A DNA stretch of 64,000 bases. Source: Escherichia phage CCU7. Below the pieces are notes generated by a model, which was given only the letters and a program-made list of their open reading frames with translations, ran no database searches and had not been told where the DNA came from. How positions within the stretch are numbered: position 1 is the stretch's first letter; each line of letters starts with the position of its first letter. The DNA lies in sequence record PV806175.1; one strand, written 5' to 3'. Positions 55,101 to 55,640 of this stretch are shown piece after piece. Position numbers and translations under genes: made by a program.

Positions 55101-55640
55101 ATGAGAACATTTTTAACTGGTCCTTATCTATCCCTGATGAATGCTTTTACACACCATTCTGATGCTAGAGTAGAAGAAATTTGTAAGAACGGTTATGCCC
55201 CACCATTTGAAGACGTACTCAAGCAGTACTGTACACTTCGTTTAGACGGCGGCAGACAATCAGGTAAATCGACTGCAGTAACTAATTTTGCTGTTAATTG
55301 GCTGTATGACGGTGGAACAGTTATTGTTCTTTCTAATACTTCAGCCTATGCTAAAATTTCTGCTGGCAACATTAAAAAAGAATTTTCTCGTTATTCTAGC
55401 GATGATATTCGATTCCGTTTATTTACCGATTCTGTCCGTAGTTTTATTGGCAATGAAGGTTCTAAATTCCGTGGATTAACGCTTTCTCGTATTCTGTACA
55501 TAATTGACGAGCCTATTAAAGCTCCTGATATGGATAAGATTTACAATGTCCATATTAAAACAGTCCAACACTGTTGCAAAAGCAAATATTGCATCGGCGG
55601 TAATGCTCGTCCTCAATTTTTTGTGATTGGAATGCAATGA
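55101..55640 (+). CDS. small P-loop NTPase (179 aa)
   Basis: Walker A GGRQSGKST and Walker-B-like ILYIIDEP; family unassigned. Confidence 0.5.
   Translation: MRTFLTGPYLSLMNAFTHHSDARVEEICKNGYAPPFEDVLKQYCTLRLDGGRQSGKSTAVTNFAVNWLYDGGTVIVLSNTSAYAKISAGNIKKEFSRYSSDDIRFRLFTDSVRSFIGNEGSKFRGLTLSRILYIIDEPIKAPDMDKIYNVHIKTVQHCCKSKYCIGGNARPQFFVIGMQ

Follow-up and report, generated by a model that had tools for sequence, protein, structure and literature searches.

The window analysed here is the whole stretch of 64,000 nt from Escherichia phage CCU7 (PV806175.1), a T-even phage of the genus Mosigvirus (RB69-like). Positions 55101-55640 on its plus strand hold an ATG-to-TGA open reading frame (ORF) of 179 aa plus the TGA. 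An in-frame TAA lies immediately 5' of the ATG at 55101, so the start of the gene is fixed in this phage. By sequence match and by position, the ORF is the orthologue of the T4 early gene vs.8. Specifically, its product, hereinafter Vs.8, is 89% identical to T4 Vs.8 (UniProt P13318) over 179 aa, counted from the conserved Met of the T4 protein, has a conserved core of equal length, and matches PHROG 1488 (E 1e-78) over profile positions 2-177 of 177. Two phages, Shigella phage Shf125875 and Escherichia phage CAU_ECP01, match the vs.8 region at 99.8-99.9% identity, and the counterpart ORF in Shf125875 carries the annotation 'similar to RB69 vs.8'. The gene order here, with the annotation of Shf125875, is nudE, e, an internal-protein (IP) gene, denV, two more IP genes, vs.8, vs.7, vs.6 (GrcA-like), vs.5, vs.4, vs.3, regB, vs.1, vs and tk.4. 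Accordingly placed after e, denV and the IP genes and followed by vs.7, vs.6 and the genes on to regB, the ORF occupies the position expected of vs.8. The first-pass annotation had put it between the IP genes and the GrcA-like gene; the IP genes do lie upstream, but vs.7 intervenes before vs.6.

vs.7 (55637-55945, plus strand) encodes a 102-aa protein of PHROG 2049, a group of unknown function. Its start overlaps the stop of vs.8 (ATGA, 55637-55640), an arrangement by which vs.7 is, as read from the sequence, translationally coupled to vs.8. Of 39 loci, about 30 have a vs.7 homologue immediately after vs.8, and the vs.7 product may be a functional partner of Vs.8. The protein itself has no family match, contains two GP[FL]xG repeats and evolves as fast as Vs.8.

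Further downstream on the plus strand, positions 56528-57093 hold vs.4 (acb2-type) and vs.3 (TadIV-1-type), as annotated in a near-identical phage. T4 vs.4 is acb2, an anti-CBASS sponge, and T4 vs.3 is TadIV-1, which acts as a sponge on the signal of type IV Thoeris. The vs.3 of the window is 59% identical to T4 vs.3 and, with 99 aa, belongs to the 'long' functional length class. The vs.8 gene string thus holds orthologues of two proven T4 anti-defence sponges. The packaging genes lie elsewhere: the large terminase gene (TerL, gp17) is at 17887-19722 on the minus strand, with Pfam matches to Terminase_6N (2e-57) and Terminase_6C (1e-30), and the adjoining small terminase gene (TerS, gp16) is at 19706-20200, on the strand opposite to vs.8.

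A T4-early-type promoter-like site, TTTACT-N17-TAGTAT, can be read at 54991-55019 on the plus strand. It is a consensus match only, with a one-base mismatch to the PST/T4 consensus TTTACW-N17-TAYWAT (PMC4122927), and is sub-threshold in a generic sigma-70 scan. A terminator-like site within vs.8 (55596-55611) was taken as chance, four such sites being found where 2.2 are expected. The first-pass annotation had allowed that the protein might not be made at all; its T4 orthologue, however, is classed both as early RNA and as early protein in T4 omics (PMC9697503 supplements). We conclude that vs.8 is a real, expressed early gene of T4-like phages, with expression shown for T4 and a promoter-like site present in CCU7.

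Two short ORFs begin upstream of vs.8. The first, in another frame, has 36 codons rather than the 32 first assigned to it (55052-55162, plus strand) and overlaps the first 62 nt of vs.8; the second has 13 codons (55063-55104, plus strand), with a TGA that overlaps the vs.8 ATG (ATGA). The longer ORF had been proposed to regulate vs.8. As a conserved peptide it was rejected, with its ATGs and its frame relative to vs.8 varying between phages, and the 13-codon ORF is not conserved as a reading frame either. In other phages, the ATGs of the upstream ORFs read AAG, TAG, ATT, AGG, ACG or TTG. What is conserved at this place is a nucleotide element.

The same variation bears on the start of the T4 gene. 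A 2-nt indel places the same upstream ATGs in frame with vs.8 in T4, so T4 vs.8 is annotated 37 codons longer; in CCU7 these extra N-terminal codons are out of frame and closed by the TAA. In the T4T annotation ('25.0 kDa protein'), the extension runs through the leader (positions 3532-3642 of the T4 locus, L002, from T4T) in a frame unshared by other phages. Most loci have a stop codon 1-15 codons upstream of the conserved Met of Vs.8. The annotated start of T4 vs.8 is probably too far upstream.

The conserved nucleotide element is a leader block at 55038-55084 (plus strand), which is identical to T4 at 46 of 47 nt and contains a pair of GGA motifs, at 55054-55056 and 55072-55074, with a spacing of 18 nt. 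The second GGA lies in the loop of a putative hairpin, GCCA-CGGAA-UGGC (55067-55079, plus strand), with a 3-5 bp stem kept in all loci examined. The leader identity contrasts with a 49% difference from T4 at synonymous sites of vs.8. As with 46 nt of the leader, the first 78 nt of vs.8 (55101-55178, compared with 3643-3720 of the T4 locus) are 100% identical to T4, and the shared stretch could be a recombination tract or reflect additional constraint at the mRNA's 5' end. The block is recognisable in phages in which Vs.8 is only 35-45% identical. Both GGAs are kept in at least 30 loci; across phages, they are spaced by 17-19 nt, and a hairpin of 3-5 bp, about 24-37 nt ahead of the ATG, carries the second GGA in its loop.

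Statistical support for the GGA hairpin is modest. Three divergent loci have a stem changed on both sides (GGCA/UGCC, GACA/UGUC and CAGCA/UGCUG), and in a CM-based count 84.5% of cells are paired, with changes on both sides at one pair only. A stem of 4 bp or more is found at 27% of random GGA sites, so the hairpin is suggestive rather than proven. For the whole leader, RNAalifold gives weak covariation and -5.3 kcal/mol. A stable fold was rejected, with z-scores of -0.5 to +1.2 and folding energies no better than those of shuffled sequences, and so was a known RNA, with no Rfam match at E up to 1-5. The arrangement resembles CsrA-type sites, for which the criteria are a GGA in the loop of a short hairpin and a second GGA 10-63 nt away (PMC7652899). 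Specifically, the GGA at 55072 is in the GCCA/UGGC loop and the second, at 55054, is 18 nt upstream. This likeness is one of sequence only, and reading of the leader by a CsrA-type protein is a lead by analogy rather than a test. Translation of vs.8 is probably controlled via this GGA-hairpin leader and not via the upstream ORF. The leader, the least-described item found at the locus, may act as a new element of post-transcriptional control for an early operon that includes known anti-defence genes.

The surroundings of the leader differ between phages. In most relatives, a conserved 5' half (CCTGTAATAAGGTCGAGCCCAAGTGCGGTAA; also CCTGTRAHAAGGYC...GCGGTAA) precedes the block, and across the Tevenvirinae the leader spans, for example, 3506-3642 of the T4 locus and 2845-3000 of locus L012. 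The 5' half is absent from CCU7, where an IP gene and the promoter-like site at 54991-55019 stand in its place. Compared with T4, CCU7 has two IP genes between denV and vs.8 and lacks the T4 leader's 5' half. In Marfa-like Klebsiella phages (L022 2485-2985; also L024 and L027), the 3' half of the leader is found on both sides of an inserted IP gene (L022 2603-2917), whose product starts MKTYKEF, like a capsid-targeting sequence. This duplication looks like a cassette-style insertion into the leader, and the IP genes of the CCU7 window likewise lie between denV and vs.8. The leader was nevertheless rejected as a PeSL mobile promoter/stem-loop cassette. The PeSL motif of T4-type phages is repeated and dispersed through hyperplastic regions, whereas the leader is duplicated only locally, in Marfa-like phages, and occurs as one copy in the 64-kb window and one 17-mer copy per T4-like genome in IMG/VR. 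The Morganella and Providencia T4-like phages (L062 and L064) have no GGA leader; each carries a different strong hairpin just before the RBS, about 60 nt upstream of its vs.8-like gene (CCCGGTTTG...CAAACCGGG and GCCCAAAG...CTTTGGGC).

The AF2 model of Vs.8 (pLDDT 82, pTM 0.83) has a five-strand alpha/beta core and stops directly after the strand that follows Walker B. The two motifs singled out by the first-pass annotation were found again: the Walker A motif (P-loop) GGRQSGKST (G50-T58; 55248-55274) and the Walker B motif with catalytic Glu, ILYIIDEP (I131-P138; 55491-55514), both, like the features below, on the plus strand. Walker A is invariant in A1, an alignment of the Vs.8 family with 18 homologues, and is paired by hhalign with SRQLGKTT of TerL; Walker B corresponds to strand 131-137 of the model. 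The loop between a helix and the Walker B strand carries R124-G125 (55470-55475), which is invariant and aligned to R245-G246 of gp17. In P74-26 TerL, a proven trans-arginine finger occupies the loop that leads into the Walker B strand, and T4 likewise has an Arg there (PMC5727402). We infer that R124 is equivalent to the trans-arginine finger position of TerL. The last strand (172-177) and the C-terminal G-M-Q (55617-55637) include the invariant G177 and Q179. This strand may correspond to the C-motif of TerL or motif III of helicases by its place in the predicted fold only, being unaligned by hhalign. The N-terminal helix (L5-F16, LTxxYLxLMxAF; 55113-55148) is specific to the vs.8 family and lies outside the terminase-aligned stretch; L5, Y9, L10, L12, M13, A15 and F16 are invariant in A1, and the model has a helix at residues 6-29.

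Among the 18 diverse homologues, which go down to 38% identity, G50, G51, R52, Q53, S54, G55, K56, R113, R124, G125, E137, P138, K146, Y148, G177 and Q179 do not vary, D136 is nearly invariant, and every homologue stops at the same G-x-Q C-terminus. The Walker motifs are thus invariant or nearly so, and the loss of conservation that could have undone the first reading of them is not seen.

Remote homology and structure prediction, which the first-pass annotation had proposed as checks, yielded kinship with the terminase ATPase core and a five-strand RecA-like core. As judged by profile comparison, Vs.8 is a single-domain ASCE P-loop homologue of subdomain I of the T4-type large terminase ATPase. 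In hhalign, the Vs.8 family matches T4-type TerL (alignment A3, built from the gp17 of the window as seed and covering ATPase domains of T4-type terminases) with 95.8% probability and E 8e-9 over 121 columns (residues 24-150). The pairs aligned between Vs.8 and gp17 include R52/R162, Q53/Q163, G55/G165, K56/K166, R124-G125/R245-G246, D136/D255 and E137/E256. The large-terminase PHROG is the second-best PHROG match of Vs.8 (E 1e-5), and Terminase_6N appears sub-threshold in 8 of 33 family members; on the Vs.8 of the window it reaches 14.7 bits, against a gathering cut-off of 22, over profile positions 4-54 only. Comparison of profile with profile alone is convincing. The Vs.8 profile matches the single gp17 sequence weakly, at 13.5% probability, and pairwise BLAST between Vs.8 and the gp17 of the window aligns the P-loop only (E 0.33). 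HMM searches of PDB sequences with Vs.8 did not find gp17 and gave a TraB-like coupling protein at E 0.07-0.15, and Foldseek of the model against the PDB returned generic P-loop matches with low TM-scores. The terminase kinship of T4 vs.8 was already published in 2026 (PMC13601566).

The family had first been described as unknown. That holds for the curated collections: Vs.8 has no above-threshold Pfam family, with just AAA_14 and Terminase_6N sub-threshold, and no NCBIfam match, PADLOC gives PtuA alone (E 0.01), and PHROG 1488 is labelled 'unknown function'. It does not hold for the gene, which is the named T4 gene vs.8 and encodes a homologue of the terminase ATPase core. In GenBank phage records, vs.8 orthologues are misnamed 'endoribonuclease', 'RegB domain-containing protein' or 'terminase large subunit' (H47, H64, H77 and H81; L067).

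The fold of Vs.8 fits the RecA1 domains of SF2 helicases as well as it fits terminase. SF2 helicases (DDX1, Mfd and RIG-I) have two tandem RecA domains and motifs Ia, III (SAT) and VI, whereas Vs.8 has one domain and lacks the tandem RecA-like pair with motifs I-VI that marks a helicase; its sequence signal is of the terminase type (RQxGK, RG), not of the helicase type. The first-pass annotation had regarded the ORF as a stand-alone small P-loop protein, too short for a terminase or a helicase, and the absence of lid, TTT coupling motif, nuclease and second RecA domain bears this out. It had also raised a kinase. Vs.8 does resemble small nucleotide, polynucleotide or protein kinases in its 179 aa and its Walker A motif, and the phage has other P-loop kinases (tk and dNMP kinase). 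Its Walker B (hhhhDE with a catalytic Glu) is, however, the mark of the ASCE class, its fold matches are all RecA-like, and no kinase family is among its Pfam, NCBIfam and PHROG matches; in a control hhalign run, the Vs.8 profile against phage thymidine kinase gave 0.7% probability and E 0.08. A kinase is close to refuted.

By tblastn, vs.8 occurs in 1009 phage records and is near full length in 1007; most of the records are of phages of Escherichia, Klebsiella, Shigella, Enterobacter, Yersinia and Salmonella. The dN/dS ratio of the vs.8 of the window against T4-type copies is 0.08-0.12. An exhaustive hmmsearch of 1.8 billion representatives shows that the family is small, with 57 clusters, all of small proteins (none above 259 aa) and no full-length terminase among them. 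Distant members in Providencia and Morganella T4-like phages occupy the same genomic place, near a Gly_radical gene and regB. Between genera, Vs.8 is 34-46% identical, and Vs.8 and Vs.7 together (31-46%) are the fastest-changing of the neighbourhood; the corresponding values for e, denV, regB, vs.1 and vs.6 are 55-94%. In one distant branch (P0168, P0172, P0176 and P0177; alignment A4), the Walker A Lys is replaced by His (SGH[ST]) and the Walker B DE by DC or DV. These relatives appear to be catalytically dead with the fold kept, as judged from their motifs, and are seen solely on metagenome contigs under 1 kb.

This record bears on whether Vs.8 is selected at all. A decaying terminase duplicate, relevant only via host sensing, would be dispensable, as vs.8 is in the sense of being missing from many T4-like phages outside the enterobacterial group; activation of a sensor is also its sole known phenotype. 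Such a relic would not be expected to be full-length in 1007 records with a dN/dS of about 0.1, to keep invariant motifs, a family-specific N-terminal helix and an exact C-terminus, to retain synteny out to Providencia and Morganella phages, or to be made as protein in T4, and a gene that merely triggers immunity would be lost. We consider decay very improbable.

A second possibility is that Vs.8 is itself an enzyme, namely a mini ATPase that self-assembles into a ring or filament with R124 acting in trans, works on a phage or host substrate (e.g. nucleic acid) or with Vs.7 and the GrcA-like Vs.6, and is recognised by the host sensor Avs2 only incidentally. What speaks most for such an enzyme is the strict conservation of E137 and R124: Walker A, Walker B, the catalytic Glu, R113 and R124 are invariant, and R124 is aligned to the TerL Arg at the trans-finger position. 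The dN/dS of about 0.1, the coupling of vs.8 to vs.7 with their co-occurrence, and the place of vs.8 beside the Gly_radical gene even in the distant Providencia and Morganella phages are consistent with it, as are the many small stand-alone look-alikes in other large phages, for which a BFVD structure search gives many uncharacterised proteins of 140-175 aa. A five-strand domain without a lid or a second RecA domain nevertheless offers no obvious way to move a substrate, a DNA- or RNA-binding motif was not found in Vs.8, and the catalytic residues are lost in some relatives. Taken together, an enzyme of this kind seems somewhat unlikely.

Packaging provides another possible role. Vs.8 cannot package DNA, because it ends after the fifth strand, without the lid, TTT motif, nuclease, and portal- or TerS-binding parts. 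It could instead modulate or compete with packaging by docking on gp17, gp16 or the portal, restraining the phage's own motor or poisoning the terminase rings of co-infecting phages or satellites. The part of TerL to which Vs.8 is homologous is exactly the ATPase core that oligomerises, the cis arginine and the candidate trans arginine are kept, and the loss of the translocation and cutting parts is the classic make-up of a dominant-negative subunit. In T4, gp16, gp17 and gp20 are late. The early expression of vs.8 in T4 (PMC9697503) argues against this role, as does an evolutionary rate much faster than expected for a partner of the highly conserved TerL, and the gene is unlinked to the packaging genes, which are 35 kb off in the window. 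We regard a packaging role as quite improbable.

The published phenotype of vs.8 concerns bacterial immunity. Evans et al. (Nat Commun 2026; PMC13601566) used AlphaFold 3 to screen the proteins of T4 and PhiC120 against EcAvs2, a terminase sensor, found vs.8 in this way and showed that T4 vs.8 is toxic if expressed together with EcAvs2. They modelled Vs.8 in the terminase pocket of Avs2 with an AF3 ipTM of 0.84 and the bridging ATP retained, and described it as a terminase-like uncharacterised ATPase with Walker A and B, homologous to the ATPase domain of T4 terminase (PMC13601566). They further suggested that such activators other than terminase may serve in anti-defence and have become targets that Avs2 learned to recognise (PMC13601566). 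The gene and its Avs2 link are thus already known, and the toxicity was observed with the vs.8 of the T4/PhiC120 screen. In type IV Thoeris, single-gene tests of T4 vs.3 to vs.8 singled out vs.3 only, and vs.8 gave no inhibition.

The reading that we prefer, tentatively and with somewhat less than even confidence, is that Vs.8 is an ATP-bound terminase look-alike engaged in phage-host conflict, most likely as a decoy or blocker of terminase-directed host factors. It lies in the direction of the inhibitor and exclusion roles that the first-pass annotation had listed. Vs.8 keeps the residues expected to bind Mg-ATP, namely the P-loop Arg and Lys, the Walker B Asp, the catalytic Glu and the Arg at the trans-finger position, and hydrolysis is probable. 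It would be synthesised early, from the same gene string as the sponges Acb2 and TadIV-1, and in its ATP-bound form would show a terminase-like face at protein-protein interfaces. Selection would most likely have favoured Vs.8 for diverting or blocking the host factors that target terminase, and its recognition by Avs2 would be the counter-move of the host, by which some Avs2 variants would have made Vs.8 a trigger. The ATPase-dead relatives and the fast divergence favour such a binding role. On the other side, the strict conservation of E137 and of the candidate trans-Arg is more in keeping with an active, oligomeric enzyme than with a passive decoy, and the sole known phenotype is the activation, not the inhibition, of a sensor. 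The argument from gene context is weak, because the string also holds the housekeeping genes denV, regB and tk.

A more specific form of the decoy reading, which we consider unlikely, makes Vs.8 a dedicated mimic of terminase. Produced early and in ATP-loaded form, the mimic would occupy or mis-assemble terminase-targeting host sensors or inhibitors (Avs1, Avs3, Upx and others) before the real terminase appears, and its synthesis would be set by the GGA-hairpin leader, read by a host CsrA-type protein or by a phage RNA-binding protein. If true, the mimic would be a protein-level decoy arm of T-even counter-defence beside the nucleotide sponges of the same operon. No phage protein is sensed more widely by bacterial immunity than terminase, and a conserved, early, ATP-binding copy of only the sensed domain is a counter-measure or else a liability that the phage tolerates for good reason. 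Deciding which would show how T-even phages handle terminase sensors and would assign a function to a gene carried by roughly a thousand sequenced phages, of which many are candidates for therapy.

Compared with the large terminase, Vs.8 is a homologue of the ATPase core and not a terminase. Like the large terminase, it has a Walker A motif with the P-loop Arg and a Walker B motif with the catalytic Glu. Vs.8 is without the lid subdomain, the TTT coupling motif and the RNase H-like nuclease domain. Of the gp17 ATPase (N-subdomain I; PDB 2O0H; Terminase_6N), it holds only the core of about 130 residues, lacks the adenine-binding Gln at the aligned place and has a conserved N-terminal helix of its own. 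Its gene is early in T4 and unlinked to TerS, with TerL and TerS on the other strand, 35 kb away.

Close parallels are also Ksap1 and Ksap2, non-terminase activators of Avs2 that, like Vs.8, are small, lineage-restricted, placed by modelling in the terminase pocket of Avs2, and toxic with Avs2. Ksap1, however, has 74 aa, no Walker motifs and no sequence relation to terminase, whereas Vs.8 is a terminase homologue with ATP-binding motifs. Ksap1 is also a proven in vivo trigger, with escape mutants, whereas Vs.8 is a candidate trigger.
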